40,446 nucleotides of DNA from contig JACOTS010000052.1 of NCBI GenBank assembly GCA_016178265.1, positions 1 to 40,446 on the forward strand, written 5' to 3'. The notes under the pieces are model-generated. The model was not told where the DNA came from. It saw only the letters and a program-made list of their open reading frames with translations, and did no database searches. Positions within the stretch are counted from its first letter, which is position 1. The number at the start of each line of letters is the position of its first letter. The DNA comes from Candidatus Melainabacteria bacterium (lineage in GTDB: Bacteria; Cyanobacteriota; Vampirovibrionia; 2-02-FULL-35-15). Of this stretch, positions 1,780 through 39,225 are shown in pieces. The position numbers were made by a program, and so were the translations under genes.

Positions 1780-2592
1780 ATGCCAAAAGAAATCAAAGTA
1801 TTAGTTTGCGGTGCCGCAGGCAAAATGGGCAAAAGTGTTGTAAAAGCTGTTACCGCAGAAACTGGGTTTAAGCTTGTTTCTGCTGTAGATAGAAGAGAAA
1901 ATCCTGATATCGGAAAAGATATTGGTATCATAAGTGGCATAGATAAAGTTAATGTTAAACTTTCAGGTGATTTAAAAGAAGCTATTTCAAAAACCTCTCC
2001 TGATGTAATGGTTGATTTTACAATGCCTGAAATAGTATTCACGAATACCGAGATTTCATTAAAATCAGGAGTAAGAGCTGTTGTTGGTACTACAGGAATG
2101 TCAAAAGAAGATATAAATGAACTTGCAAAAATTGCAAAACAAAACGGCATTGGTGCAGTCGTTGCCCCTAATTTTGCAATTGGCGCAGTACTAATGATGA
2201 GGTTTGCAAAAGATGCAAGTAAGTATTTTGATAATGCTGAAATTATTGAGTTTCATGGTCATAAAAAATTAGATGCTCCAAGTGGTACTGCTATAAAAAC
2301 CGCAGAGCTTATGACAGAAGCAAGAAAAGAATTTGGAAAAGATACAATAAAAGGAAAAGAAACTTTTCCGGGTGCAAGGGGAAGTAAAGGACCTGGCAAT
2401 CTACATATTCACAGTGTCAGGCTTCCATCACTTGTTGCACATCAAGAAGTTATCTTAGCCGGTTTAGGCCAAACTTTAACTATAAGACATGATAGCTTTG
2501 ACAGAACTTCTTTTATGCCAGGTGTTCTTATGGCAATAAAAAAAGTTATGCAAATTGACCATCTTATTTACGGACTAGAAAATATTATTTAG
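1780..2592 (+). CDS. dapB: 4-hydroxy-tetrahydrodipicolinate reductase
   Basis: N-terminal GAAGKMG Rossmann motif and the EFHGHKKLDAPSGTA signature. Confidence 0.9.
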   Translation: MPKEIKVLVCGAAGKMGKSVVKAVTAETGFKLVSAVDRRENPDIGKDIGIISGIDKVNVKLSGDLKEAISKTSPDVMVDFTMPEIVFTNTEISLKSGVRAVVGTTGMSKEDINELAKIAKQNGIGAVVAPNFAIGAVLMMRFAKDASKYFDNAEIIEFHGHKKLDAPSGTAIKTAELMTEARKEFGKDTIKGKETFPGARGSKGPGNLHIHSVRLPSLVAHQEVILAGLGQTLTIRHDSFDRTSFMPGVLMAIKKVMQIDHLIYGLENII

Positions 2593-3778
2593 AATTATCT
2601 TTTAGAATAAACATTCCATCTTTTACTTCATAAATTGCAAATCCAGGGCCTTCTAAATCCCCTTTTGAATTAAAAGATAACTTTCCTAAAGCACCATTAA
2701 ATTCATTTATGTTTTGAATTTCCTTAGCTATCTTATCCGAACTTTTCTCTTTTACTTTTTCTATAGCAGAGATAAGTATATTAGTAGCATCATATGCTGC
2801 TGCTGAATAACTTCCAAGTTCTTTTTTGTATTTCTGCTTATATTTTTCTACAAATGACCCATCTTTTACCGGAAGTGATGAGATAACTAAGGCTCCCTGT
2901 GCTGCTTCACTGGCACAATCTATGAACTCTTGATCAAACACTCCTTCGCTTCCAACAAAAGCCGTTGTAAGTCCTGACTCTCTAAGTTCTTTTAGAAACT
3001 TTCCAGCATCACCATATTCTCCAACAAAAAATATTACTTCCGGAGATTTTTCAGTAACTAGTTTTACCTCTGAAGAATAGTCACTTTTTCCAACTCTATA
3101 TTTTTCATACAAAATAACATCAGGTGCGGTTTCTGAATCTTTACTCAATCTTCCTAAAAATTCAGATGCAAGGCTTGAACCATAAGGTCTGTTATTGTAT
3201 AAAACTCCTATCTTTTTAAATCCTTTTTCTTGAATAAGATCAGCTAATATTTCTCCTTGTTTATCATCCCTTCCTATGGTCCTAAAAACATAGCCTTTTA
3301 CTGCATCCCTTTCAGTAAAAATTGGACTTGTTGAACCTGGTGAAATTTGAGGAATTTTTGCTTTTGCATATATTTCAGAAGCAGGAATTGAAATATCAGA
3401 GTTTAGATGTCCAATTACCCCAAGTACCATAGCATCAACCAAGTCTCTTGCTCTCCAAGTGGCATCTCCAGGAAGCCCCCCATCATCAACTTTTATAAGT
3501 TCAATCTGTTTGCCATTTATTCCACCCTTTTCATTTTTTATATCCACTGCAAGTTCTGCACCTCTAATTATTGAAAGTCCTAGGGCTTGATATGGTCCTA
3601 TTTGAGGAGCAACTACAGCAATTTTATAAATACTCTCATCTTTTTTTTCAACTTCAGCTTGAGTATTATTGGGTTTCTCTTTTACTTGAGATTTTTGATT
3701 TTTATGACATGCCGAAAGAATAGTTAAAGCAAAAACAAGTGAAAGTAAAATTAAACTTAATCTACCAGCTTTTATCAT
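2585..3778 (-). CDS. ABC-type branched-chain amino acid binding lipoprotein (LivK/PBP type 1 family)
   Basis: Lipoprotein signal (LSAC). YKIAVVAPQIGPY...GGINGKQIELIKVDDGG is typical of Leu/Ile/Val-binding proteins. Paralogue of the next gene. Confidence 0.8.
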   Translation of the reverse strand: MIKAGRLSLILLSLVFALTILSACHKNQKSQVKEKPNNTQAEVEKKDESIYKIAVVAPQIGPYQALGLSIIRGAELAVDIKNEKGGINGKQIELIKVDDGGLPGDATWRARDLVDAMVLGVIGHLNSDISIPASEIYAKAKIPQISPGSTSPIFTERDAVKGYVFRTIGRDDKQGEILADLIQEKGFKKIGVLYNNRPYGSSLASEFLGRLSKDSETAPDVILYEKYRVGKSDYSSEVKLVTEKSPEVIFFVGEYGDAGKFLKELRESGLTTAFVGSEGVFDQEFIDCASEAAQGALVISSLPVKDGSFVEKYKQKYKKELGSYSAAAYDATNILISAIEKVKEKSSDKIAKEIQNINEFNGALGKLSFNSKGDLEGPGFAIYEVKDGMFILKDNSK

Positions 3779-4935
3779 TATGTTTCACTTTTCTCCTTTT
3801 CTAATTTTAAAACTTGAAATTTCCCCTCTATAACTTTGCTTAAAACAAAACCCGGAGAAACAATATCTCCTTTTTCATCAAATGTTATAGAACCAGTAAC
3901 ACCAGGGAAGTCTTTAGTCTGAGCTACTTCTTGAGCAATTTTTTTCGAATCTTTTTCCCCAACTTTTCTAATTGCTTCTATTAATATATTGGTTGCATCG
4001 TATGAATTTGCTGAATAGCCTGTTGGAGGCTCACCAAATTCTTCTTTGTACTTTTTAATAAAGTCTTCATTAATTATTTGAGGGACTGAAATAGCAAGCG
4101 CTCCTTCAGTATTAATTCCACCAATCTTTATAAAATCCGGGTGATCAATGCCATCTCCACCAATAAATTGAGTTTTTTCTAAACCATACTTTGGAAAATC
4201 TTTAATTAAATGCCCTGCATCATCATGCTCTCCTGCAAGAAAAACAACATCTGGATTATTAGATGCTACCTGAGACAAAAGCGCACCGTAGTCAGTTTGA
4301 CCAACTTGAATCATGCTATAAAAGACTATTTGAGGACGTTCTCCGCTTGCAGGTAAAACCTTAATAGCTTTTGCAAATTCCCCCGCTAATGTTCTACCGT
4401 AGGCTCTGTCATTGTATAAAATCGCTACTCTCTTAAAATTATTGTTTATCACATAACTAGCAGCAATCTTGCCTTGTGTATCATCTCTTCCTATTGTTCT
4501 AAAAACATAACCTTTAGCTGCTTCTCTTTCGGTAAAATACGGGCTTGTTGTCCCCGGACTAATCTGAGGTATATTTGCTCTGGTATAAAACTCAGAAGCA
4601 GGAATTGAAATATCAGAGTTTAAGTGCCCAATTACACCAAGTACCATATCTGTTCTGGTTAACCTATATGCAAAGAAAGCTCCTTCTCCAACAAGACCAC
4701 CATCATCTTCTTTAATTAAAACAATCTCTTTACCATTAACACCATTTGTTTCATTAGCTTCTTTCACAGCAAGCTCGGCACCATTTACAATTGATTTTCC
4801 TAAAATAGAATAGGGCCCACTAAGAGGAGAAATAACAGCAATTTTATAAATATCTTTTGGATATTTTGGCTGCAGGCAACCTGAAGTAGAAAACATCAAC
4901 AAAATAATCAGTAAAAAATTTAAGGTCTTACTCAT
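3778..4935 (-). CDS. ABC-type branched-chain amino acid binding lipoprotein, tandem paralogue
   Basis: Same family and the same conserved blocks (VIGHLNSDISIPASE, GYVFRTIGRDD). The MSKTLNF start at 4935 is preferred over the track start at 4953. Its stop overlaps the downstream start by 1 nt (TAATG). Confidence 0.8.
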   Translation of the reverse strand: MSKTLNFLLIILLMFSTSGCLQPKYPKDIYKIAVISPLSGPYSILGKSIVNGAELAVKEANETNGVNGKEIVLIKEDDGGLVGEGAFFAYRLTRTDMVLGVIGHLNSDISIPASEFYTRANIPQISPGTTSPYFTEREAAKGYVFRTIGRDDTQGKIAASYVINNNFKRVAILYNDRAYGRTLAGEFAKAIKVLPASGERPQIVFYSMIQVGQTDYGALLSQVASNNPDVVFLAGEHDDAGHLIKDFPKYGLEKTQFIGGDGIDHPDFIKIGGINTEGALAISVPQIINEDFIKKYKEEFGEPPTGYSANSYDATNILIEAIRKVGEKDSKKIAQEVAQTKDFPGVTGSITFDEKGDIVSPGFVLSKVIEGKFQVLKLEKEKSET

Positions 4936-4942
4936 ATAAATG

Positions 4943-5863
4943 CTAATTATCAACCCCTTTTCTAATTCTATCTAATTCCTCAGAAGAAGTAATAAGCTTA
5001 ACAGGCAAAAATCCTTCTTGAACAACCACATCTTGTCCTTCGGGACTTAAAACATAATAAATGTAAGCAAGCCCAATGTCCGTTGAATCCTTTTTTATTG
5101 CATAATATAAGTCTCTAAACAAAGGATACTCTCCTTTATAAGCTGCTGCATAAGATGGGACTACTTTATTAACTGAAATTGCTTTAACCTTATTATCAAG
5201 ATAATTAAATGGCAAATAACCAAGTCCATATTTCAAGTTAGCAATATTTGCTTTCATTTCCGAACTAGAGTTGACTACCACTGATTGCAAAGTGATTGGT
5301 GTGCCGGGCTTATTTTCTTCTTTAGATTTACCCATAACTAATTCCATAATTGCAGCTCTTGTTCCTGCGCCAGCAGAATCATTAATAAGAAGTATTGGCT
5401 TATCAAACGGCAAGCCAAGTTCTTTCCAATTTATAATTTCTCCTGAAAGAACCTTTCTTAGATCTTCTATTGAAATATCTTTTATTGGATTTGAGGGATG
5501 AACTACAATAGCAATAGCATCACGTGCTATAACAAATGGTTTTAATTCTTGTTGTTCATCAAAAGACAGTTTTCTTGAACTTGCACCAACATGTGCAATA
5601 TTGTTAAGTACTGCGTTAATCCCTGCTGTTGAGCCACCGCCTTGTACTAACACTTCAACCCCAACCTCTTTTCTATAATTAGTAGCAAGATGTTCAGAAA
5701 GAGGAAGCAAGGTTGTTGATCCTACCAGTACTAGTCTAGGGGACTTAGCAAAGGACTGAGTACATAGGATTGAGAATTGAGTTAAAAGTGCAAATACTAA
5801 TAAAATAGTGGATATGATTATTAATTTTCTCTTGTTAAATCTTAATCGCTTAATTCTCATCAT
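4943..5863 (-). CDS. pstS: PstS-family phosphate-binding protein (PBP type 2)
   Basis: Signal/TM segment, then VGSTTLLPL ... VQGGGSTAGI motifs of PstS-like binding proteins. No pstCAB genes are adjacent. Confidence 0.7.
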   Translation of the reverse strand: MMRIKRLRFNKRKLIIISTILLVFALLTQFSILCTQSFAKSPRLVLVGSTTLLPLSEHLATNYRKEVGVEVLVQGGGSTAGINAVLNNIAHVGASSRKLSFDEQQELKPFVIARDAIAIVVHPSNPIKDISIEDLRKVLSGEIINWKELGLPFDKPILLINDSAGAGTRAAIMELVMGKSKEENKPGTPITLQSVVVNSSSEMKANIANLKYGLGYLPFNYLDNKVKAISVNKVVPSYAAAYKGEYPLFRDLYYAIKKDSTDIGLAYIYYVLSPEGQDVVVQEGFLPVKLITSSEELDRIRKGVDN

Positions 5864-5894
5864 CCAATCCTCAATCCCATTATAATAGAAATCA

Positions 5895-7649
5895 ATGCTA
5901 ACTCAACTTACCATTTCAAACTTTGCGATAATTGATGAACTAGAAATTAATTTTAATAGTGGTTTGATCGTACTAACAGGTGAAACAGGTGCAGGAAAAT
6001 CAATAATTATAGATGCATTGGATTTTTTATTGGGGGCAAGGGGAAGCTTAGATTTTATAAAAAATGGTACAAGCAAAGCAAAGGTAGAAGGGATTTTTGA
6101 AATTAGTGACAAACTTTCAAGAATCTTACATAATTGGTTTAAAGAAAATGGTTTTGATGAGCTCGATAGTCAAAATCAATTAATAATCTCAAGAGAATTA
6201 TCACAAAATGGCTCTAAAGCAAAAATTAATGGTTCAATTGCTAATCTTTCACATCTTACCTATGTCAGGGAATATATTTTTGATATTCACGAACAAAGCA
6301 GTCATATTGATTTGCTAAAGATTGAAAAGCAAATTGAAATATTTGATTCTTTCGGAGATATTAGCCATCAAAAGCTTTTAAGTAGTTACAGAAATTTATT
6401 TGAAGAATTTACAATCATAAAAAATAGGCTAAACAGTCTTACAGAAAGCTCAGAAGAAATTGCAAAAAAAATGGATTTCTTAAAATTTCAAATAAATGAA
6501 ATAGAAGAAGCAAATATAAGTGATTTAAAAGAAGAAGAAACCTTGCTTGAACAAAGGAAAAAGCTATTAAACAGCAAAGAACTGTATGACAATGCTTCAA
6601 AAATAAATGAGTTAATAAGTGGCGAAAATCCTTATAACCTAACAAAGCTACTTACAGAAATCAAAAAACTAATTGCAAGCTCAAGCTCTTTTGACATATT
6701 GTTTGAGCCTTATAAAGAAGTTATTGAATCTGCTAGTGATAGCATGAAAGATTTATCCTCATTTACATCAAGTTACACAGAAACCATTCAAGAGCCTGGT
6801 GAAAACTTAGATGAAATAGAAGATAGGCTTGATACTTTTTACAGACTAAAGAAAAAATACGGAAATACTCTTAAAGATATAAAAGGATCTTTAGAAAAAA
6901 TGGAAGATGAACTAACAACATATACAGATCCAAGAAAATCTAAAGAAAGTTTAGAAAAGGAATATAAACAAAGAGAAGAAGAGATTAATCTGCTTGCAGA
7001 CAAATTAACCAGATCAAGAGAAAAGCTAGCACAAGAATTTGTAAATAAAGTTAATGAGGAGCTTTTAACTTTAGGATTTAAAAGTAAAAACAGCTCAAGT
7101 AATTTTCCTTTATTTGTAGTTGAGTTCTTAGATTGTCCTTTAAGCAAATGTGGCAAGGAACAAATTCAATTTTTGTTTACAGCAAATCCTGATGAAGAGC
7201 CAAAACCCTTGTTAAAAGTAGCATCTGGTGGTGAGCTTTCCCGAATAATGCTTGCAATTAAGTCACTTGTAGGTTCTTTTGGATTTATAAATACAAAAAC
7301 CATGGTTTTAGATGAAATAGATATTGGGATAAGTGGAGAAATTGCATCTTCTGTAGCAAAAAAATTGTATAAGATTTCAAGAAGCAATCAAGTTATTTGC
7401 ATAACACATCAACCCATTGTTGCAGCAATGGCTGATGAACATTTTGAGGTAATAAAAGAGATAGAAGATGGTACTACTTTTGTCAATATAAGGCAACTAG
7501 CAAATGATGAAAGATGGAATGCCTTAGTTTCACTACTTGCACCAGAGTTAAAATCAAAAGAAATTTCTCATGATGCAAAACAATATGCAAAATCTCTGTT
7601 AGATAATGCAAATAAAATAAAAAACAAAAAAGAAGATGCATTAATATGA
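5895..7649 (+). CDS. recN: DNA repair protein RecN
   Basis: N-terminal Walker A (GETGAGKS), long coiled-coil middle, C-terminal SGGELSRIMLAIK signature and Walker B (LDEID). Confidence 0.9.
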   Translation: MLTQLTISNFAIIDELEINFNSGLIVLTGETGAGKSIIIDALDFLLGARGSLDFIKNGTSKAKVEGIFEISDKLSRILHNWFKENGFDELDSQNQLIISRELSQNGSKAKINGSIANLSHLTYVREYIFDIHEQSSHIDLLKIEKQIEIFDSFGDISHQKLLSSYRNLFEEFTIIKNRLNSLTESSEEIAKKMDFLKFQINEIEEANISDLKEEETLLEQRKKLLNSKELYDNASKINELISGENPYNLTKLLTEIKKLIASSSSFDILFEPYKEVIESASDSMKDLSSFTSSYTETIQEPGENLDEIEDRLDTFYRLKKKYGNTLKDIKGSLEKMEDELTTYTDPRKSKESLEKEYKQREEEINLLADKLTRSREKLAQEFVNKVNEELLTLGFKSKNSSSNFPLFVVEFLDCPLSKCGKEQIQFLFTANPDEEPKPLLKVASGGELSRIMLAIKSLVGSFGFINTKTMVLDEIDIGISGEIASSVAKKLYKISRSNQVICITHQPIVAAMADEHFEVIKEIEDGTTFVNIRQLANDERWNALVSLLAPELKSKEISHDAKQYAKSLLDNANKIKNKKEDALI

Positions 7650-9167: not shown

Positions 9168-9425
9168 ATGCCAAAAGATACTATTGAATTTGAAGGAGTG
9201 ATAAAAGAATCATTACCCAATGCAATGTTTAGAGTAGCACTTGACAATGGGCATTTAGTATTAGCACATGTATCTGGAAAAATAAGGAAACACTTTATTA
9301 AAATACTACCTGGAGATAGGGTAAAAGTAGAGCTTACTCCTTACGATTTAAATAGAGGTAGAATAATTTACCGTGTTCAAGAAAAAAGAAGGGGAGCCGG
9401 GTTATCAGAAGAAAATGAGAATTAG
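9168..9425 (+). CDS. infA: translation initiation factor IF-1 with a ~13-aa C-terminal extension
   Basis: [11 protein letters not shown]...MFRV...[14 protein letters not shown]...[14 protein letters not shown] is classic IF-1. The track start at 9159 is in frame 9 nt upstream. The tail [14 protein letters not shown] runs into repeat-like DNA. Confidence 0.9.
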
Positions 9426-9430
9426 AGGTC

Positions 9431-9651
9431 GCAAAACAATTTGTAGGATTTGTCCAATTTACTTGGCAAATCCGGTAAGGCGAAAATAAGGAAGGAACGA
9501 GCCGAGTGTTCGCACGAGACGAGCAAAATAAAGTGAGGAAAGACAAGGATAAAATCGGAGAAGAAAAAATAAGCTTTTTGTGTGATTCATTCACCAAAAA
9601 GCGTCGAGAAAGGGGAGCGAGCTGAGCATTCGTGCGAAGCGAGCGGTAAAA
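9431..9651 (+). repeat. structured repeat cassette, two tandem type-1 units
   Basis: Unit 1: hairpin H 9446-9473, GA hairpin S 9495-9526. Unit 2: H 9573-9602, S 9615-9646, then TAAAA and the rpmJ ATG. The reverse complement closely matches 14250-14398 and 12468-12550. Confidence 0.9.
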
Positions 9652-9765
9652 ATGAAACACAGAGCATCAGTAAAAAAATTATGTGCAAAGTGCAAAATTA
9701 TAAGACGCAAAGGCCGGGTAGTGGTTATTTGCGAAAATCCTAAGCACAAGCAAAAACAGCATTAA
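9652..9765 (+). CDS. rpmJ: 50S ribosomal protein L36 (not in the ORF track; 37 aa)
   Basis: Manual translation gives [37 protein letters not shown], the L36 zinc-ribbon pattern, in the canonical position after infA. Confidence 0.9.
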
Positions 9766-9779
9766 CGATTTTAGATTTT

Positions 9780-10553
9780 ATGTCTAAATTAAAATTGCTT
9801 TCTTGGAATGTAAACGGCATAAGAGCTTCTCATAAAAAAGGCTTTTTGAATTGGTTAGAAAAAGAAAAGCCTGATATTCTTTGTGTTCAGGAAACAAAAG
9901 CGCAAGAGGAACAATTAACCAGTGAACTTCTTAGCCCTAATTGCTATAAAACATATTGGTCAAGTGCAGAAAAAAAAGGATATAGCGGAGTTGCAACTTA
10001 TACAAAAATTGAACCAAAAGAAGTAAAAAAAGGTCTTGGCATTAAAAGATTAGATAATGAAGGTAGAACTTTAATTTCAGACTTTGGTGATTTTATTTTA
10101 TACAACATTTATTTCCCAAATGGGCAAAGAAGTCAGGAGAGACTTGATTTTAAGCTGGATTTTTACAATGAGTTTTTAAAACAAGTAAACAAGCTCAAAG
10201 ATAAAGGTAAAAAAATTATAGTTTGCGGTGATGTAAACACAGCACATACAGAGATTGACTTAGCAAGGCCCAGAGAAAATAAAGATACTAGTGGGTTTCT
10301 GCCTGTTGAAAGAAGCTGGATGGATAAGTTTTTTTCATATGGTTATATAGATACTTTCAGGCATTTTTGTAAAGAGGGCGGGCATTATACATACTGGGAT
10401 CCAGTTACAAGAGCCCGTGAAAGAAATGTTGGGTGGAGAATAGACTACTTTTTTATTACTCCAAATCTTTTAAAGAGCCTAAAAAAAGCATTTATTCTCT
10501 CTGATGTAATGGGATCAGATCACTGTCCTCTTGGAATTGAATTAGAACTTTAA
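9780..10553 (+). CDS. xth: exodeoxyribonuclease III (AP endonuclease)
   Basis: WNVNGIRA...CVQETK...GDVNTAH...SDHCP motifs of the ExoIII/EEP family. Confidence 0.9.
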   Translation: MSKLKLLSWNVNGIRASHKKGFLNWLEKEKPDILCVQETKAQEEQLTSELLSPNCYKTYWSSAEKKGYSGVATYTKIEPKEVKKGLGIKRLDNEGRTLISDFGDFILYNIYFPNGQRSQERLDFKLDFYNEFLKQVNKLKDKGKKIIVCGDVNTAHTEIDLARPRENKDTSGFLPVERSWMDKFFSYGYIDTFRHFCKEGGHYTYWDPVTRARERNVGWRIDYFFITPNLLKSLKKAFILSDVMGSDHCPLGIELEL

Positions 10554-10963
10554 TTTAAAGATACTGGCGCAGTAAACAGTGAGTGATTTCTCTCACGCTC
10601 TTCTTGTATACGACTTCTAACAAAAAATGGATTTCCATATGCCAGTGCTGCTTGTGTAGCAATTACACCTTCTCTTACAGGGGTTGGCATTCTGGATGCA
10701 GGGTCTATTATTTCGTTAGCTTGAGTAACTGTACCAAAGTTTGTTCCATGAATATCATCATGTGTAGGAGTATTAGCTATTCTGCTAAATCCAATATGTA
10801 CTGGAATTGAATTTCTTTGAGCAATATTTACATGTGAAGAGGTTATGGCTTGAGGCCTAGTATTGTTAAAAGGATATCTTTGAACTGGTTGAACTCTTTC
10901 TTGTTGAGCAAGAGCTCTTAAGTCATTTATTCTTGTATTTGGAAATCCAACCGGTGCTATCAA
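10550..10963 (-). CDS. hypothetical protein (137 aa)
   Basis: TTG start at 10963 with GAGGAG 8 nt upstream. No family recognised. Converges on xth with a 4-nt overlap. Confidence 0.45.
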   Translation of the reverse strand: MIAPVGFPNTRINDLRALAQQERVQPVQRYPFNNTRPQAITSSHVNIAQRNSIPVHIGFSRIANTPTHDDIHGTNFGTVTQANEIIDPASRMPTPVREGVIATQAALAYGNPFFVRSRIQEERERNHSLFTAPVSLN

Positions 10964-11090
10964 TGTACTATCTCCTCAATAGGAAAATTGTCTTATACAT
11001 AGGACATTTAGTCAAGTGATTGACCCTCAAACTGTGTAAAAAAGTTTATTTAACCTATGTTTAAACTTAATTTAACCAAGTTTTAACCAA

Positions 11091-12467
11091 TTACTTCAGC
11101 ACATTCACCATATCCACGACGGTTTTTTTGGCATCTCCAAATATCATCATGGTTTTTGGCAGATAAAACAATTCATTTTCAATTCCTGCAAATCCTGCTG
11201 CCATTGATCTTTTTAGAAAAATAATTGTTTTTGCTTTATCTACATCTAATATAGGCATTCCATAGATTGGGCTTCCTGGATTATTTTTTGCTGCAGGATT
11301 TGTAACATCATTTGCACCAACAACAAGTGCCACATCAGCTCTTTCAAATTCTGTGTTAATTTGATCCATTTCATAAAGTTTTTCATAAGGCACATTTGCT
11401 TCAGCAAGAAGAACATTCATATGGCCTGGCATACGTCCTGCAACTGGATGGATTGCATATTTTACTTCAACTCCTTTGGCTTCAAGCATATCAGCAAGTT
11501 CTCTTAAATTATGCTGTGCTTGAGCAACTGCAAGTCCATACCCAGGAACAATTATTACTTCATTTGCATTTTCAAGCACGATCTGTGCATCATCTACAGA
11601 ATATCCTTGAACTGATTTTGCTTTTCCATTGGTTGCAGCTGTTGCAGAAGCTTCAACTTTTCCAAATGCACCAAACATAACATTAGTCAGGGACCTATTC
11701 ATTGCTTTGCACATAATTCTAGTTAGTATCATTCCTGATGCACCAACAAGTGCCCCTGTTACAATTAGCGCATAATTTGAGAGTGCAAAACCAGCAGCAC
11801 ATGCAGCCATTCCTGAATATGAGTTTAAAAGTGCTACAACAACAGGCATATCTGCTCCGCCTATCGGAAGCACAAGAAAAATTCCAAGTGAAAATGAAAT
11901 AGCACATATTACCCCTGCCCATAAAATGTGTTCAGGATGCATAAAAAGAAAAATTGCACCTGTTACAATCACAAAAAACTGAAGCAGATTTAATGTTTTT
12001 TGAAATGGATATGTAACTGGTTGTCCTGTAACAATTCCCTGAAGCTTTCCATACGCTACAAGACTTCCGGAAAAAGTAATAAGTCCTATGACTAAAGTAA
12101 TTAAAATTGTAGATATTTCATAAAGAGTTGGAGTTGGATAAAGCCTTACATACTCAGATACAACTACAAGTGCTGAAGCAAGACCTCCATAGCCATTAAG
12201 AAGCCCAACCATTTGAGGCATCTCTGTCATTTTGACTGTTACTGCAAGAAACGCTCCGATAGCTGAACCAAGTATAATTCCAATTATTATAAGCTGATAA
12301 TTTATTACATTTCTCTCAAATAAAGTTGCACAGATTGCAATTAACATTCCAAATGCTGAAAGAAAATTTCCATTTCTTGCAGTCTTTGGATGACTAAGCA
12401 TTTTTAAACCAAGAATAAATAAAACTGCTGAAATTAAGTATGATATGTAAATTATGTTCTCTCGCAT
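11091..12467 (-). CDS. pntB: NAD(P) transhydrogenase subunit beta
   Basis: Multi-TM N-terminus and a C-terminal dIII NADP(H) domain (VPGYGLAVAQAQH...HPVAGRMPGHMNVLLAEA...GANDVTNPAA). Confidence 0.95.
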   Translation of the reverse strand: MRENIIYISYLISAVLFILGLKMLSHPKTARNGNFLSAFGMLIAICATLFERNVINYQLIIIGIILGSAIGAFLAVTVKMTEMPQMVGLLNGYGGLASALVVVSEYVRLYPTPTLYEISTILITLVIGLITFSGSLVAYGKLQGIVTGQPVTYPFQKTLNLLQFFVIVTGAIFLFMHPEHILWAGVICAISFSLGIFLVLPIGGADMPVVVALLNSYSGMAACAAGFALSNYALIVTGALVGASGMILTRIMCKAMNRSLTNVMFGAFGKVEASATAATNGKAKSVQGYSVDDAQIVLENANEVIIVPGYGLAVAQAQHNLRELADMLEAKGVEVKYAIHPVAGRMPGHMNVLLAEANVPYEKLYEMDQINTEFERADVALVVGANDVTNPAAKNNPGSPIYGMPILDVDKAKTIIFLKRSMAAGFAGIENELFYLPKTMMIFGDAKKTVVDMVNVLK

Positions 12468-12595
12468 TTTTTAATACCGCTCGTTTCGCGCTAACGCTCA
12501 ACTCGCTTTTTTCCTCCAGCGCTTTTTGGTGAATGAATCACACAAAAAGCTTATCTCTCCTTTTTCCCTAGTTTCTATCTCTTACCTCTTATCTC
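12468..12595 (-). repeat. structured repeat cassette, type 1, fills the pntAB-pntB spacer
   Basis: In RNA (minus) orientation: heptads 12573-12600, H 12521-12550, GGAGG (revcomp of 12513-12517), S 12477-12506, UAUUAAAAA, then the pntB AUG (12467). Confidence 0.9.
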
Positions 12596-12880
12596 TTATT
12601 TCTTCTTAAACATCTTAAGCATACGATCAGTTACTGTATATCCACCAACTACATTTATTGTTGCAAAAACTATTGCTACACACCCAAGAACAGTAGCTAA
12701 GTTTGTTTCCCCATATCCTGCAGATAGAAGTGCACCAACAACCGAGATGCCAGAAATTGCATTGGAACCTGACATAAGAGGAGTATGCAATGTAGGTGGA
12801 ACCTTGGTAATAACTTCAAACCCAACAAAAATTGCAAGTACAAGAATATAAAGTGTAATTAAAAATTCTCCAAATATCAT
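12596..12880 (-). CDS. pntAB: NAD(P) transhydrogenase subunit alpha part 2 (membrane part)
   Basis: 94-aa hydrophobic protein with HTPLMSGSNAISGI, the typical split alpha2 subunit, between pntAA and pntB. Confidence 0.9.
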   Translation of the reverse strand: MIFGEFLITLYILVLAIFVGFEVITKVPPTLHTPLMSGSNAISGISVVGALLSAGYGETNLATVLGCVAIVFATINVVGGYTVTDRMLKMFKKK

Positions 12881-13091
12881 TTTAATATCGCTCGTTTCGC
12901 ACGAATGCTCAACTCGCTTTTCCTTCCCGGCGACTTTTGCCGAGTAAATCGGACAAAAGTCTTAGGTTTTTTCTGATTCCTATTTCCTAATTCCTATCTC
13001 CTTATTTTATACCGCTCGCCTCTTCGCTTTTACCTTTTTCTTTTCCCATTTTCCCTGATTCCTATCTCCTAGCTCCTATTTCCTATCTTTT
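12881..13091 (-). repeat. structured repeat cassette, type 1 plus a partial second unit, fills the pntAA-pntAB spacer
   Basis: S 12888-12917, H 12932-12961, heptads (TCCTAnn)x4 at 12978-13005, a partial ACCGCTCGCC unit at 13011-13030, and heptads x4 at 13060-13087. The pntAB AUG (12880) follows GAGCGAUAUUAAA. Confidence 0.9.
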
Positions 13092-14249
13092 TTAATGCAC
13101 CTTTGCAAGTAAATGTTTAATGTCTTCTTTTAATACTACCCCCTGATGAGTAATAAGCGCACCTTTTATAATCTCATCATTTAAATCTAAATTTAGCAAT
13201 TTATCTTTTACGAGAAGCGAAATCACACTTTCCATGTTTTTTGAAAACATTTGGCTTGCATGCATTGGCATAGAAGATGGCAAATTAATTGGACCACAAA
13301 TCTTTACACCGTTTTTTATTACATCTTTTCCAAGTTCAGTAAGTTCACAATTCCCTCCCATATCAGCTGCCAAATCAACAATTACAGAGCCTGGTTGCAT
13401 GCCCAACACGGCTTTTTCACTAATTAAAACCGGTGCTCTTTTCCCTGGAATTTGTGCTGTAGTTATAACCACATCAAATCTTTTTATCTGCTCTGCCATA
13501 AACTCTAGTTCTCTTTTGTGGCTATCGCTGGAAAGCTGTTTTGCATATCCGCCTTCCCCTTCTGTTTTTTCTCCCTTTAAATCAAAAGAAACAAACCTTG
13601 CTCCTAAGCTTTCTATTTGTTCTTTTACTACAGGTCTTGTATCAAAAGCTTCTACAACAGCACCTAGTCTTCTTGCTGTTGCTATTGCTTGAAGCCCGGC
13701 AACACCAGCTCCAATTACAAATACTTTTGCAGGTGCAATGGTACCTGCTGCAGTCATAAACATTGGAAAAAACTTAGGCAAATTAGCTGCTGCAATTAAA
13801 ACCGCTTTATAGCCTGCTATTGTACTCATAGCACTTAAGACATCCATACTCTGTGCTCTTGTAATCCTTGGAATACTGTCAAGAGAGAAAGCTGATATTT
13901 TTCTAGAAACAAGTCTTTGTATCCCGTCCACATTAGTTGCTGGTTGAAGCAAAGAAACTAAGCAACTCCCTTCTTTCATCATATTAATTTCATACTCGTC
14001 AGCTTTTTCGTTAAACTCTGGTTTATTGATTTTCATTACCAGATCTGCCGATGCAAATAGTTCCATTGGACTTTTAACAATTTCTGCACCTGCTTCTTTA
14101 TAATTTTCATCAAAAAAGTATGCGGCTTGCCCGGCATTTTGTTCAATTAATACCTGAATACCCTTGCTAGTGATTTTCTTTACGCTTTGAGGAATTAGCG
14201 CAACCCTTGTTTCATTTTGAATGATTTCTTTTGGGATACCGAGTTTCAT
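13092..14249 (-). CDS. pntAA: NAD(P) transhydrogenase subunit alpha part 1 (dI, NAD(H)-binding)
   Basis: MKLGIPKE..NETRVA start, alanine-dehydrogenase/PNT fold and the Rossmann motif VIGAGVAGLQA. Confidence 0.95.
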   Translation of the reverse strand: MKLGIPKEIIQNETRVALIPQSVKKITSKGIQVLIEQNAGQAAYFFDENYKEAGAEIVKSPMELFASADLVMKINKPEFNEKADEYEINMMKEGSCLVSLLQPATNVDGIQRLVSRKISAFSLDSIPRITRAQSMDVLSAMSTIAGYKAVLIAAANLPKFFPMFMTAAGTIAPAKVFVIGAGVAGLQAIATARRLGAVVEAFDTRPVVKEQIESLGARFVSFDLKGEKTEGEGGYAKQLSSDSHKRELEFMAEQIKRFDVVITTAQIPGKRAPVLISEKAVLGMQPGSVIVDLAADMGGNCELTELGKDVIKNGVKICGPINLPSSMPMHASQMFSKNMESVISLLVKDKLLNLDLNDEIIKGALITHQGVVLKEDIKHLLAKVH

Positions 14250-14420
14250 CTTTTACCGCTCGCTTCGCACGAATGCTCAGCTCGCTCCTTATTTTCGACG
14301 CTTTTTGGTGAGTGAATCACACAAAAAGCTTATTTCCTACTTTTCTACTTTATCGGATTTGCTGGATAAACCAGACAAATCCTACAAATTGTTTTATGCT
14401 CTGATCTTCTTCTGATTCCT
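14250..14420 (-). repeat. structured repeat cassette (type 1) forming the pntAA 5' leader
   Basis: S 14256-14285 (same core as 9617-9646), H 14300-14329, a second H 14355-14382, the shared TACAAATTGTTTT edge, and a pyrimidine tail up to 14420. GAGCGGUAAAAG precedes the pntAA AUG. Confidence 0.9.
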
Positions 14421-14424
14421 CTTC

Positions 14425-14452
14425 ATTATAAATTTAATCATAAACATTGTAA
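14425..14452 (-). promoter_or_regulatory. sigma70-like promoter candidate for the pnt operon
   Basis: On the minus strand: TTACAA (14452-14447), 16-nt spacer, TATAAT (14430-14425). The cassette at 14250-14420 would then be transcribed as leader. Confidence 0.4.
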
Positions 14453-14483
14453 AAGTATTGTTATTTTGAAAATTAACTTATAG

Positions 14484-14622
14484 GATAACTGCTCACCTAA
14501 TAGAAGCAATCTTGTGGGTGACACCGGAAGGGAGGGGGTCCATGAGCAAGGTACGTAGCTCATGGAGGGTGACCTGTAGGTGGCAGGACCCACTAAGTTA
14601 TAGCTAGCAAGGTGAGCAGTTA
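14484..14622. other. 139-nt long imperfect hairpin (candidate structured RNA or MITE-like element), class unknown
   Basis: A perfect 13-bp closing stem ATAACTGCTCACC/GGTGAGCAGTTAT. Inner stems CTTGTGGG/CCCAC(T)AAG and CCATGAGC/GCTCATGG. GC-rich core. A partial third copy of the arm (GGTAACTACTCACC) sits at 14756-14769. Confidence 0.35.
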
Positions 14623-14659: not shown

Positions 14660-14806
14660 ACTGGTCAAGCAAGTGGTAGCTAGCAGCTTACCCAATAATC
14701 TTGCATTTTTACTCCTCAAATACTTAAAACGCTAGCTACCGACCATTAAATTATGGGTAACTACTCACCATCTATAAAATGACCACTATAGCAATTTATC
14801 AGGAAA

Positions 14807-14921
14807 GGTTTTGTCCGACTTGTTCGGCAAAACCTGGACATCGTGGTAAGAAGCAAATATCTAGTGCACTCTGGAAAGGTGGCGAGCAAGTTATGAGCGA
14901 GCCACCTGAGTAAAAACAATT
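14807..14921 (+). repeat. structured repeat cassette, type 2 (long variant), lexA leader
   Basis: H 14807-14834 (GGUUUUG-U-CCGA-CUUGU-UCGG-CAAAACC), a middle block shared with 20338-20379, and S-like 14878-14906 (GGTGGCGAGCAAGTTATGAGCGAGCCACC). TGAGTAAAAACAATT then leads to the lexA ATG. Confidence 0.8.
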
Positions 14922-15503
14922 ATGGCAACAGAACTTACAGAAAACCAAACCGGATTTTTAAACGGGCTTAAAAAGCAATACAGAAAAACCCCGCTTCCAT
15001 CCATAAGACAAATAGCAGAAGATCTTGGTTTTAAATATCACAATTCTGTTCAACACTATCTTGAAATATTAATGTTTCAAGGCATTATTAAAAAAATCGA
15101 TGATTTTTTATATCTAGATAAAAATTTGTTTGGTTTAAAGATCTTTGATTCCAGGGTACCTGCAGGGCTTCCTGCTCAAAGCGATGATAGCTATGAAGTT
15201 TTTGATTTTGATGAATTCATGAACATTGATAATGAGAGAGGATTTATGCTTAGGGTCTCCGGAGATTCTATGATAGACGCTGGAATACATGATGGTGATT
15301 TAATTACAGTAGATACAAAAATCAGGCCCACACATGGGCTTATAGTTGTTGCAATAGTAGATGGTGGTTATACAGTTAAGTACTTACGCAAAAAAGGAAA
15401 TAAATATTATTTAAAAGCAGCTAACCCAAAATATAATGATATTCACCCAGAGCATGAGTTTAAGGTGGTTGGTGTGGTAACCGGTTCTATCCGTAAATTT
15501 TAG
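14922..15503 (+). CDS. lexA: LexA repressor
   Basis: N-terminal winged HTH, an Ala-Gly cleavage site (VPAGLPA), and the S24 peptidase Ser (SGDSM) and Lys (TVKYL). Confidence 0.9.
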   Translation: MATELTENQTGFLNGLKKQYRKTPLPSIRQIAEDLGFKYHNSVQHYLEILMFQGIIKKIDDFLYLDKNLFGLKIFDSRVPAGLPAQSDDSYEVFDFDEFMNIDNERGFMLRVSGDSMIDAGIHDGDLITVDTKIRPTHGLIVVAIVDGGYTVKYLRKKGNKYYLKAANPKYNDIHPEHEFKVVGVVTGSIRKF

Positions 15504-18489: not shown

Positions 18490-19818
18490 TTGATTAAAAG
18501 ATATACACGCCCCATATTTGAAAAGCTTTGGTCAGAGGAGAATAAGTATGCGATCTGGCTTGAAGTAGAGCTTGCTGCATGTGAAGCAAGTGCAGAATTT
18601 GATCAAATCCCTCAAGAAGCTATTAAAAAAATTAAGGAAAAAGCCAAAATCAATATAAAACGAATTGAGGAATTAGACACAGAAGTTCATCATGATGTAA
18701 TAGCATTTTTAAGCAGTCTTACTGAACAAATTGGAAATGAGGGAAGATTCCTGCATCTTGGAATGACAAGCTCAGATTTGATTGATACCGCTTTTGCAAT
18801 TTTACTTAGAGATGCCGGAAAAGAAATATTAAAAGGGCTTGATCTTCTACTTGAAGCATTTAAGACAAAAGCAATTGAACATAAAAATATAATTTGTATA
18901 GGAAGAACACATGGGGTTCATGCTGAACCAACTACTTTTGGACTAAAACTGCTTAATTTTTATGAGGATTTAAAGAGAGTAAAAGAAAGATTTGAAAAAT
19001 CAACAGATGATATTAGTGTAGGTATGTTTTCTGGTGCTGTAGGCACTTATGCAAACTTTGACCCTAAGATTGAAGAGATAGCGCTTAAAAAACTAGGACT
19101 AAAGCCTGTGCCAATATCTACACAAGTAATAAGCAGAGAAAGGCATGCAGCTTACATAACAAATCTGGCACTAATTGCATCAGTTATTGAAAAAATAGCT
19201 ACTGAGTTAAGACACTTGCAAAGAACCGAAGTATTGGAAGTAGAAGAACCTTTCTATAAAGGCCAAAAAGGCTCTTCTGCAATGCCACATAAAAGAAATC
19301 CTTGGAAGCTAGAAAACTTATGTGGGCTAGCAAGATTAGTAAGATCTTATGCAATATCTTCTATGGAAAATGTAACTCTTTGGCATGAAAGAGATATAAG
19401 CCACAGCTCAGTTGAAAGGATTATTTTCCCTGATTCAACTACACTTGTTGATTTTATGGTTCACAGACTATATGAAATAATTTCAAAACTAAATATTTAT
19501 CCTGAAAATATGAAAGAAAATATGTTTAGATTTGGCGGGGTGGTTTTTTCCCAAACGGTTTTACTAAAACTGGTTGAAAAAGGATTAGAGCGAGAAAATG
19601 CATATAAGCTTATCCAGGACAATGCGCTAGCTGCATGGAATAAGAAAGATGGTAATTTTAAGCAAAATATACTTACTGACAGTAAGATCACCAATATATT
19701 GTCTAAAGAAGAAATAAACGACTGTTTTAACCCTGAAAAGCACCTTAAAAACATAGATTCAATATTTAATAGGGTCCTTAACGTTGAATCTAAAAAAGAA
19801 AAATCCCTTGCACTTTAA
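18490..19818 (+). CDS. purB: adenylosuccinate lyase
   Basis: (M)IKRYTRPIFEKLWSEENKY matches the canonical PurB N-terminus. SSAMPHKRNP signature. The in-frame TTG at 18490 is preferred over the track TTG at 18463. Confidence 0.9.
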   Translation: MIKRYTRPIFEKLWSEENKYAIWLEVELAACEASAEFDQIPQEAIKKIKEKAKINIKRIEELDTEVHHDVIAFLSSLTEQIGNEGRFLHLGMTSSDLIDTAFAILLRDAGKEILKGLDLLLEAFKTKAIEHKNIICIGRTHGVHAEPTTFGLKLLNFYEDLKRVKERFEKSTDDISVGMFSGAVGTYANFDPKIEEIALKKLGLKPVPISTQVISRERHAAYITNLALIASVIEKIATELRHLQRTEVLEVEEPFYKGQKGSSAMPHKRNPWKLENLCGLARLVRSYAISSMENVTLWHERDISHSSVERIIFPDSTTLVDFMVHRLYEIISKLNIYPENMKENMFRFGGVVFSQTVLLKLVEKGLERENAYKLIQDNALAAWNKKDGNFKQNILTDSKITNILSKEEINDCFNPEKHLKNIDSIFNRVLNVESKKEKSLAL

Positions 19819-19966: not shown

Positions 19967-20242
19967 ATGGCAAGATTTTTTGATTCAGCAAATGAATCAG
20001 TAAAAAGATCAAACTATAGCTCAGACATTCTAGAAGCCTTTGATCTTATCCAAGCAATTTCTTGTTACAGATACTTCCCAACTGTTGACGAATGCATTAA
20101 AGCATTTCCAAACCTTGAACAAGAAAAACATAAGGTTGAGTATATATGGGAGCAGTTTAAAGGTTTATCAAACGAACAACTAAGTGACATTTTCATCTCA
20201 TCACTAAGCAAGATTGATGTATCAAATGCAATAACTAATTAA
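19967..20242 (+). CDS. hypothetical protein (about 91 aa)
   Basis: Track ORF 19949..20242, with the first ATG at 19967. No family recognised. Confidence 0.35.
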   Translation: MARFFDSANESVKRSNYSSDILEAFDLIQAISCYRYFPTVDECIKAFPNLEQEKHKVEYIWEQFKGLSNEQLSDIFISSLSKIDVSNAITN

Positions 20243-20305
20243 TATCCCTTTGTTTTTGTTACTGCCTACCTAACACTAGAAGTTCCAACTAAACTACTAC
20301 AAGGT

Positions 20306-20420
20306 AAGATTTTATCCGATTTATTCGGTAAAATCTTGATAGCAATGCTAAGAAGTACATAATATGTGCACTTTGCAAAACCGGCGCAGCTCATTCGTGA
20401 GCAAGCCGGTGGTAGGCAAA
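20306..20420 (+). repeat. structured repeat cassette, type 2 (long variant)
   Basis: H 20306-20337 (AAGAUUUUA-U-CCGA-UUUAU-UCGG-UAAAAUCUU), a middle block homologous to 14835-14877, and S 20380-20410 (ACCGG..GCTCA-TTCG-TGAGC..CCGGT). Followed by GGTAGGCAAAAA. Confidence 0.8.
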
Positions 20421-20511
20421 AATATCCCTTTATTACGCCTAATTCTACATATTTAGTGATTATCTAATAAAAAGAAACTCAAGTAAATTTTTTACCGTCT
20501 TACTTTAAGTT

Positions 20512-28922: not shown

Positions 28923-28953
28923 CTCTGATCTCTGATTCTCTGATTCTCTGAAA
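28923..28953 (+). repeat. tandem 7-8-nt repeats (CTCTGAT(T))x4 abutting the tRNA 5' end
   Basis: CTCTGAT CTCTGATT CTCTGATT CTCTGAAA, ending 1 nt before the tRNA-Arg. The same CTGATTC word occurs in the cassette tails at 12973-12979, 13055-13061 and 14413-14419. Confidence 0.8.
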
Positions 28954-28954
28954 C

Positions 28955-29029
28955 GGGCCCTTACCTCAGCCTGGATAGAGGACATGGCTACGAACCATGG
29001 CGTCAGGAGTTCAAATCTCCTAGGGCCCT
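28955..29029 (+). tRNA. tRNA-Arg (anticodon ACG)
   Basis: Manual cloverleaf: acceptor GGGCCCT/AGGGCCC, D stem CCTC/GAGG, anticodon stem CATGG/CCATG with loop CTACGAA, T arm AGGAG-TTCAAAT-CTCCT. No encoded CCA. Confidence 0.9.
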
Positions 29030-29030
29030 A

Positions 29031-29159
29031 ACTTAAATAGCCCAGCAAGCAAAGGATTTTCTGTTAAGTGAAAATCCGGAGCGTCGAAAATTAATATAGA
29101 CCATACCAGATAATGCAAAGTTGGTTTTAGTCTCTGCTAAAACCAGCGGTTATAAAAGC
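29031..29159 (+). repeat. 129-bp insert built of cassette-like modules between the tRNA and its duplicated 3' half
   Basis: Hairpin 29054-29077 followed by GGAGCGTCGAAAA (compare the cassette linker GCGTCGAGAAA). Hairpin 29122-29145 followed by GCGGTTATAAAAG (compare the cassette 3' end GAGCGGTAAAAG). Confidence 0.6.
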
Positions 29160-29208
29160 ACATGGCTACGAACCATGGCGTCAGGAGTTCAAATCTCCTA
29201 GGGCCCTA
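29160..29208 (+). repeat. exact 49-nt duplicate of the tRNA-Arg(ACG) 3' half (matches 28982-29030)
   Basis: Base-by-base identity from the anticodon stem through the acceptor end plus 2 nt. It ends 1 nt before the stop codon of the convergent gene. Confidence 0.9.
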
Positions 29209-39112: not shown

Positions 39113-39162
39113 TCTTTCTACCTACCGCCTGCTCGCTCATAATTCACTGTTACGATCACGCT
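39113..39162 (-). repeat. cassette S-module variant (type 2) forming the MCCase beta leader
   Basis: Minus-strand RNA: ...GAAUUAUGAGCGAGCAGGCGGUAGGUAGAAAGA-AUG. The 12-mer TTATGAGCGAGC is identical to 14891-14902 in the lexA leader copy. Confidence 0.65.
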
Positions 39163-39225
39163 TTACATCTTTTGAAATTATAGCAGGCATAATCTCTTAA
39201 ACCTCAATTGCTAAAATATAGGTAT

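Follow-up and report, generated by a model that had tools for sequence, protein, structure and literature searches.

A motif abutting start codons as the probable 3′ end of a mosaic REP/MITE-like repeat family in Melainabacteria

The Melainabacteria are the non-photosynthetic sister group of cyanobacteria. We have analyzed a stretch of 40,446 nucleotides from a Candidatus Melainabacteria bacterium (GenBank assembly GCA_016178265.1, contig JACOTS010000052.1), referred to below as the window, which has a GC content of 33–35% and is 99.7% identical to a contig of assembly GCA_016196635.1. The subject is a short motif, GAGCGR-UAWWAAA, for which the initial annotation had proposed that it abuts start codons, always in the same orientation relative to the gene. 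On the minus strand, positions 12506–12465 read AGCGAGUUGAGCGUUAGCGCGAAACGAGCGG-UAUUAAAAA-AUG, the AUG being the start codon of pntB (12467–12465). This motif forms the 3′ terminus of a module of about 86 nt, composed of a hairpin (H), a purine spacer, a second hairpin (S), and the tail GGUAUAAA.

H has a UUYAY loop and a bulged U that is conserved, and S is a 14-tier hairpin with a UUMG loop and two tandem G·A steps in a CGAG/CGAG context. At pntB, S folds as GC-GA-GUU-GA-GCG-UUAG-CGC-GA-AAC-GA-GC, with both internal loops symmetric (tandem G·A/A·G); the G·A pairs are predicted to be sheared. The pntB copy of H lies about 15 nt upstream of S and reads GCUUUUUG-U-GUGA-UUCAU-UCAC-CAAAAAGC, the U being bulged, and the purine tract between the two hairpins is GGAGGAAAAAAG. 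A covariance model (CM) of H+S was run on the window with filters off. The modules, their scores, and the features next to them are the following.

9432–9536, plus strand: distal module of the infA–rpmJ spacer, with H at 9446–9473 and S at 9498–9524, the latter with one C·A mismatch and without the GGUA tail; no start codon adjoins it (fold, S pattern, CM 57.7 bits).
9560–9656, plus strand: rpmJ-proximal H+S module, with H at 9573–9602, S at 9617–9644, the tail GGUAAAA, and the ATG at 9652 (fold, S pattern, CM 103.8 bits).
12467–12563, minus strand: pntB-proximal H+S module, with H at 12521–12550, the purine spacer at 12507–12520, S at 12479–12506, the tail at 12468–12478, and the ATG at 12467–12465 (sequence, fold, S and H patterns, CM 102.7 bits, PntB family match).
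12564–12595, minus strand: array of purine heptamers resembling Shine–Dalgarno (SD) sequences (GAGATAA GAGGTAA GAGATAG...), the rest of the pntAB–pntB spacer from the pntAB stop codon.
12878–12974, minus strand: pntAB-proximal H+S module, with H at 12932–12961 (GACUUUUG-U-CCGA...), S at 12890–12916, the tail GAUAUUAAA, and the ATG at 12880 (fold, S and H patterns, CM 103.5 bits).
12975–13091, minus strand: distal part of the pntAA–pntAB spacer, with heptamer arrays and a truncated S with tail (AAAGCGAAGAGGCGAGCGGUAUAAAA, ~13005–13030).
14246–14342, minus strand: pntAA-proximal H+S module in the 5′ untranslated region (UTR), with H at 14300–14329, S at 14258–14285, the tail GGUAAAAG, and the ATG at 14249 (fold, S and H patterns, CM 101.4 bits).
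14343–14396, minus strand: extra H-type hairpin without S upstream of the pntAA module, GGAUUUG-U-CUGG-UUUAU-CCAG-CAAAUCC (14355–14382; fold, H pattern, CM 19 bits).
14425–14453, minus strand: promoter-like TTTACA-17-TATAAT (11/12), a consensus match only.

The rpmJ, pntB, pntAB, and pntAA copies are all in the sense orientation, with the ATG 7–11 nt after ...CGAGC, and an SD-like purine patch is present 5′ of S at each of them (GGGGAG, GGAGG, AAGGAA, and AAGGAG), as had been noticed in the initial annotation. For these four copies the motif indeed abuts a start codon, but the fifth true S (9498–9524) adjoins none. Judging from the promoter-like site at 14453–14425, the pntAA hairpins would fall inside a leader of about 170 nt. 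Purine heptamers (GGAGATA, GGAAATA, GGTAAGG, etc.), which look like repeated SD cores, stand 5′ of the modules adjacent to coding sequences (CDS) at 12564–12595 and 12962–13091. At positions 3982–4035 of a relative with 79% identity (L204), such heptamers alone fill the pntAA–pntAB spacer, without H or S.

The pattern of S, CGAGYYGAG-N8-CGARRCGAGC, is matched five times in the window with zero matches expected, and that of H, UUUGU-N4-UUYAY-N4-CAAA, six times with 0.47 expected, all of these copies lying between 9.4 and 14.4 kb. The CM finds the five full modules given above and, in addition, H-only hairpins at 14793–14856, 20294–20358, and 14343–14396. Six gene-proximal copies had been claimed initially, four of which (rpmJ, pntB, pntAB, and pntAA) are confirmed. 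The other two are not S modules: upstream of lexA the CM scores the H hairpin only, and the copy at the MCCase beta-subunit gene reaches 9.5 bits with E = 7.7. The literal search suggested at that time, run here as GAGCGR-N2-15-ATG, gives five matches in the window versus 1.67 expected, of which the one at 19588, inside a gene, is due to chance. This match, together with the two cited copies that are not modules, would speak for a sampling accident, in which GAGCGR motifs occur near ATG codons by chance. However, five copies of S where zero are expected, CM scores above 100 bits, and more than 100 homologous copies elsewhere have already refuted such an explanation, and its probability is practically nil.

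A genome scan with the S pattern gave, among the matches listed, repeated matches in the Candidatus Melainabacteria metagenome-assembled genomes (MAGs) nzgw190, nzgw193 (GCA_023250155.1), and SSGW_16. The first version of the pattern was too permissive, most of its at least 113 matches being chance occurrences in high-GC genomes, and a stricter one yielded 99 copies on 88 metagenome contigs. After deduplication, at least 115 unique copies were obtained from Melainabacteria MAGs and metagenomes, and the structure statistics are taken from an alignment of 108 of them. S is 99.8% paired in this alignment, and the four pairs that the search pattern leaves free (Y/R) all covary perfectly (UA/CG, CG/UA, AU/GC), while H shows double changes at 11 of its 12 pairs. 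None of 500 shuffles reaches the observed values, and slid registers fall to 29–50% paired. As to the strand, 8 G·U pairs and not a single A·C pair are seen in H, S folds with −9.6 kcal/mol in the sense versus −5.4 kcal/mol in the antisense direction, and the G·A steps of S become U·C on the opposite strand. The structure is therefore selected on the strand that was named in the initial annotation. Positions A−2, G−1, G+1, and U+3, which lie outside the S pattern, are nearly invariant. The position of H can also be occupied by unrelated hairpins with an RGUGA loop, such as GCAAAAAAUGUUCU-RGUGA-AGAAUAUUUUUUGC and AGAAUGUUYC-GGUGA-GGAAUAUUCU, with S and the tail unchanged (L010, L020, L115, L130, L143, L154, L158, L161, and L195).

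We have also considered a number of known elements. A search of the window with Rfam release 15 found only two tRNAs above the gathering thresholds and nothing relevant at E ≤ 10 in 9300–14600, and a known RNA family is rejected on these grounds. The same holds for a Rho-independent terminator, since none is called at any module on either strand and S is followed by GGUAUAAA rather than by a U tract; on the reverse strand, the reverse complement of S has a folding energy of no more than the −5.4 kcal/mol given above. An integron attC site is rejected because the tails GGTATAAA or GTTATAAA do not fit GTTRRRY, there is no cassette context, and the flanks are housekeeping operons. A kink-turn is incompatible with the two G·A steps of S, both of which are symmetric 2×2 internal loops without a bulge. 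The TATAAA tail was also considered as a −10 box of leaderless mRNAs or tRNAs and was discarded on account of the tail-to-feature distance of 0–10 nt, the ATG often overlapping the tail, as was TTGAGC within S as a −35 box, because it is not conserved.

In nzgw190 and nzgw193, the H+S core is found inside a MITE, or miniature inverted-repeat transposable element, of about 122 nt, here called type-1, with the terminal inverted repeats (TIRs) GTTACTRCYTAGC / GGTAGGTAGWAAC. Its 8-bp target duplications match at 8/8 positions in 6 of 22 copies and at 7/8 in 5 more, the control maximum being 6/8. Because the same core lies in MITEs with TIRs and 8-bp target duplications, the family is or recently was mobile. 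Three features of the window belong here.

14749–14925, plus strand: long-variant MITE of 161 nt (14757–14917) upstream of lexA, with an H-type hairpin at 14807–14836 and an S-like hairpin with one CGAG/CGAG tandem G·A step at 14878–14906 (sequence, H-only CM match, empty site in the relative L201).
20242–20431, plus strand: second long-variant MITE (~20252–20421), with an H-type hairpin at 20306–20336 and the S-like hairpin CCGGC..GCUCA-UUCG-UGAGC..GCCGG (H-only CM match, 84% match to L142).
39115–39190, minus strand: degenerate remnant of a MITE, upstream of the gene for the MCCase beta subunit (CM score as given above).

A perfect duplication of 8 bp, AATTATGG, flanks the lexA element (14749–14756 and 14918–14925), and the lexA ATG (14922) lies in its downstream copy. 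L201, which is 95.5% identical over ~10 kb, has a single AATTATGG, that is, an empty site for this MITE. The long variant with TIRs and a target duplication is also present in L146 and L169. The element at 20.25 kb has the ends GTTACTGCCTACC ... GGTAGGCAAAAA and is flanked by a 10-nt direct repeat, ATATCCCTTT. In the MCCase relic, GGCGGTAGGTAGAAA equals the 3′ end of the MITE and TGCCT-GCTATAAT resembles its 5′ end, with neither an H nor an S hairpin. The copies of MITE type show no orientation bias (5 to 4), and in the 8-kb loci of the relatives the TIR pattern marks small elements only. Around the rpmJ, pntB, pntAB, and pntAA modules, no TIR and no target duplication were detected. The initial suggestion of a mobile element that inserts near start codons is thus borne out for the TIR-bearing members, whereas for the TIR-less modules the mode of spread is what we infer. 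The long MITE variants (window 14860–14870 and 20366–20372; L146) share a central GTGCAC segment between H and the S-like hairpin, and in the window one of these MITEs immediately precedes lexA.

How far the S end lies from the feature that follows was tabulated for 90 TIR-less copies, and the distance is tight for every type of neighbor, within about 17 nt.

Same-strand CDS start: 7–11 nt from the S end in 24 of 41 copies.
Same-strand tRNA 5′ end: 8–18 nt from the S end in 9 of 11 copies.
Opposite-strand tRNA 3′ end: 8–17 nt from the S end in 17 of 18 copies.
Opposite-strand stop codon: 1–11 nt from the S end in 9 of 11 copies.

The copies collapse to 67 sites, and what lies 3′ of these within 30 nt is a CDS start (28 sites), a tRNA on the opposite (13) or the same strand (5), a CDS stop on the opposite strand (7), or something else (14). 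The orientation is informative only in co-directional spacers. At the level of sites, co-directional CDS–CDS spacers hold 22 sense versus 5 antisense copies (p = 0.0015), and co-directional CDS–tRNA spacers 3 sense versus 9 antisense copies. The sense bias inside operons is therefore real, but the proposal that the orientation is always sense is false, as antisense copies exist in the wider family. The genes downstream of modules include those of L36, L20, L17, S10, S20, IF-3, RF1, SecY, YidC, enolase, and PntAA/AB/B.

In six syntenic relatives (67–79% PntAA identity), the pnt spacers measure 1–65 nt, e.g., TAAaATG, TAAcaATG, and TGAtaATG, and contain no module, and the pnt modules are consequently lineage-specific insertions into formerly coupled junctions. 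In L201, the pntAB and pntB modules are at the same positions as in the window, but with the H and S subtypes swapped, the differences being all compensatory, while the flanking coding sequence is ~98–100% identical. The window has ~80 and ~163 extra nt relative to L201. The former are missing there from the distal pntAA–pntAB spacer (12975–13091), and the latter correspond to window 9487–9649, such that in front of rpmJ L201 retains H and GGCGGUAUAAAGAA-AUG, S being wholly lost. Truncated copies of S are common, chiefly at distal positions within arrays, and in L153 the 5′ arm of S is missing from a CDS-proximal copy. One module, directed at the 3′ end of tRNA-Met, has orthologs in three lineages with flanking proteins of only 51–86% identity; it carries compensatory changes, and the spacer beside it is unalignable among the three. 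In L187 (425–2231), nadB (L-aspartate oxidase) replaces pntB after pntAB and the module, which suggests a rearrangement breakpoint at the module.

We consider it probable that the motif forms the 3′ end of one member of a mosaic, structured intergenic repeat family that is endemic to a low-GC Melainabacteria clade and filtered by orientation. The best reading is that this family resembles repetitive extragenic palindromes (REP) and bacterial interspersed mosaic elements (BIME) in its behavior and is related to MITEs in its origin. Between sites, TIR-less modules would be swapped, gene conversion being the most likely route. With spacers of only ~1–30 nt in these genomes, a landing element would fill the spacer and would for this reason abut the next boundary, be it a start or stop codon or the end of a tRNA. 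Inside operons, it would be mainly the sense copies that survive, and such survival implies co-transcription and compatibility with initiation. A sense module would then be co-transcribed, and its A-rich tail, with the adjoining SD-like purines, would have to act as the region where translation of the downstream cistron is initiated; effects on translation or RNA stability may follow. The rule of the initial annotation would thus largely follow from insertion into very small spacers together with the orientation filter, and its interpretation is partly supported. A literature search found no description specific to a Melainabacteria MITE or repeat, and, if the repeat-family reading holds, the family is previously undescribed in Melainabacteria. 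It would also mean that small structured elements colonize and expand formerly translationally coupled junctions of 1–5 nt, that the exchange of modules between sites far outpaces the divergence of the coding sequence, and that breakpoints of gene order occur at modules.

Several points weigh against this reading. The way in which the TIR-less modules spread has to be deduced, as they have neither a TIR nor a target duplication. For a selfish repeat, S is conserved to an unusual degree, also at the flanking positions that the pattern does not cover. The retention at tRNA-Met suggests either a function or very efficient concerted evolution, not passive junk, and the downstream genes are enriched in translation and housekeeping functions. 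Finally, the genomes of the relatives were compared only as 8-kb pieces.

A dedicated function of the module is accordingly possible, either in translation initiation or in the definition of RNA ends, the conservation at tRNA-Met and the extreme conservation of S pointing that way. In genes 38 and 25 of phage T4, an SD-like tract is parted from the AUG by a stable hairpin, and folding restores the spacing. The module has the same geometry if the anti-SD sequence is assumed to be canonical, with an SD-like tract 5′ of the hairpin and a normal distance to the AUG once S is folded. It could thus be a portable initiation cassette, in which an AAGGAG-like tract pairs with the anti-SD, the folded S is looped out, and an SD–AUG spacing of 7–11 nt results, and which would provide independent initiation at junctions once reliant on translational coupling. 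This proposal, although we hold it to be unlikely, agrees with a number of observations. The stem-to-AUG distance is 7–11 nt in 24 of the 34 close CDS-proximal copies, and GGAG, GAGG, or AGGA stands directly 5′ of S in 24/34 CDS-proximal versus 6/26 tRNA-proximal copies. The anti-SD duplex energy 5′ of S, calculated with a canonical anti-SD not read from the organism, is −6.8 kcal/mol for the CDS-proximal versus about −2.3 kcal/mol for the tRNA-proximal copies (p = 4e-5), and −6.8 versus −3.9 kcal/mol in the window-like lineage alone (p = 0.0065). Where S and the AUG are more than 11 nt apart, an ordinary SD (AAGGAGGT, AAGGGGGT) is often found in between. The pnt modules occupy junctions that are coupled in relatives (TAAaATG, TGAtaATG), and modules replacing such junctions must permit translation of the downstream cistron; the bias of 22 sense versus 5 antisense copies fits as well. 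However, the same S end adjoins tRNA 5′ ends, opposite tRNA 3′ ends, and stop codons at equally short distances, and the losses in L201 (rpmJ without S) and L153 (no 5′ arm) argue indirectly against S being necessary for initiation. SD-like heptamers are also found beside antisense copies (3.0 per 60 nt versus 3.6 for sense copies), and within the lineage the motif test is not significant (Fisher p = 0.13). Moreover, ~70% of the genes in the window lack an SD anyway: only 28% have an SD-like motif at −20 to −1, in line with the remark in the initial annotation that many genes have no obvious SD. Owing to the lineage confounding and the heptamers beside antisense copies, SD-likeness was rejected as a clean proof of a role in translation.

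An alternative is RNA punctuation, in which a stable hairpin with a short, single-stranded AU-rich linker beside mature RNA ends would define or protect the 5′ ends that result from the processing of mRNAs and of precursor tRNAs. The reverse complement of antisense copies would then act as a 3′ trailer hairpin, and the role would be ancestral at tRNAs and later extended to mRNAs. Such a role is rather unlikely in our estimation. It is consistent with the 18 of 67 sites that are tRNA-adjacent, always by the S end and at 8–18 nt, with the orientation being kept per tRNA, with the orthologous tRNA-Met module and its compensatory changes, and with the location of the modules, which are intercistronic or in the pntAA 5′ UTR. 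ERIC repeats, whose effects on mRNA stability depend on orientation, offer a precedent (PMC2229807). Against it stand the missing terminator-like signature on either strand, the weak reverse complement of S (−5.4 kcal/mol), and 9–12 tRNA contexts in which the sense strand is antisense to both neighbors, such that a sense RNA may never exist. The two functions could also be combined in a domesticated, clade-wide RNA device, where S, probably protein-bound, marks tRNA-adjacent ends, is carried by MITEs, and forms a split-SD cassette in place of coupling; this we find doubtful. If true, it would represent a mobile ribosome-entry module in bacteria, and an S that acts in initiation or RNA processing would be a rare case of a mobile element that comes into operons with an expression signal of its own. 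Natural variants of the S stem already constitute a compensatory series. At the other extreme, the family could be purely selfish, the hairpins being single-stranded DNA recognition sites for a transposase or recombinase of REP/RAYT or IS200/IS605 kind, in which case strand specificity and covariation would reflect the needs of mobilization and not a role of the RNA. The imperfect hairpins, the conserved extrahelical T, and the non-Watson–Crick steps on one strand only are of this kind, as are the bare modules without TIR or target duplication, the rapid turnover with truncation and module swapping, and the BIME-like mosaic arrays. Nevertheless, H is unlike S, whereas the ends of IS200/IS605 resemble each other, and the demonstrably mobile copies have TIRs and 8-bp target duplications, which is a DDE-type signature. 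A Y1 transposase gene was not seen either, although no search aimed at one was made. Since the orientation bias in operons and the orthologous retention at tRNA-Met would be left unexplained, we judge a purely selfish element to be improbable.

The repeat family shares a number of features with known systems. Like the REP/BIME of enterobacteria, it consists of many short imperfect palindromes that are found in intergenic regions only, form mosaic arrays with other motifs, are probably co-transcribed in operons, and are polymorphic between close strains, with compensatory changes that keep the structure. In contrast to REP/BIME, H and S have no GTAG head, GGTAGGTAG being present at the 3′ end of the MITE only. 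The two hairpins are unrelated and in direct rather than inverted arrangement, S rests on tandem G·A steps, MITEs that have TIRs and target duplications can contain the core as well, and the adjacency to tRNAs and start codons is strong. ERIC/IRU, Correia/NEMIS, and the pneumococcal BOX/RUP/SPRITE are co-transcribed bacterial MITEs with orientation-dependent effects (PMC2229807, PMC3184786, PMC3049150). The type-1, lexA, and 20.25-kb copies are similar to these in being non-coding, ~120–170 nt long, and bounded by TIRs and target duplications, and in inserting near gene starts. Their RNA would fold when transcribed, and for ERIC the orientation matters; the presence/absence polymorphism with an intact empty site (lexA, L201) is likewise of MITE type. 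Unlike the known MITEs, the four start-abutting modules have no TIR or target duplication, and the H+S cargo is far better conserved than the ends and persists at orthologous tRNA sites across deep divergence. The tract–hairpin–AUG geometry is that of the split SD in T4 genes 38 and 25, but these are single-gene arrangements and not a dispersed repeat, and the hairpin of the module also adjoins tRNAs and stop codons. The ends of IS200/IS605, PATEs, and REPIN/RAYT have in common with the modules the strand-specific imperfect hairpins, the extrahelical T, and bare units without TIR or target duplication, but the left and right hairpins of the modules differ and the mobile relatives have TIRs and 8-bp target duplications.

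Two mechanically called open reading frames (ORFs), of 108 and 64 aa, cross modules on the opposite strand, at 9334–9660 (minus) and 14221–14415 (plus). Automated annotation is likely to take ORFs of this sort for genes. If the repeat-family reading is right, ORFs across modules should be taken as spurious, and the start codons called next to modules need care.

A few further observations were made in the window. In the region 28955–29208, tRNA-Arg(ACG) has a 48–52-nt duplicate of its own 3′ half 127 nt further on, and the interval contains two hairpins and a module-like tail, GCGGTTATAAAAG; the arrangement looks like either a scar of att type or a variant of the module. As a general mechanism, an insertion of integrase type accompanied by duplicated halves of tRNAs was rejected, as it is seen in only 1 of 46 tRNAs. 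CTCTGATT, which is the reverse complement of the heptamers associated with modules, stands in three copies directly upstream of this tRNA-Arg (28930–28954). At 5790–6080, 291 nt with the start and the N-terminus of a RecN-like gene (ORF 5895–7649) are missing in JACPXG010000024 (L001), which is otherwise 99.7% identical, the cause being a deletion or a difference in assembly. Finally, two neighboring paralogous genes of periplasmic binding proteins (Peripla_BP_6) are found at 2585–4953, with a stretch of 177 nt that is 81% identical.

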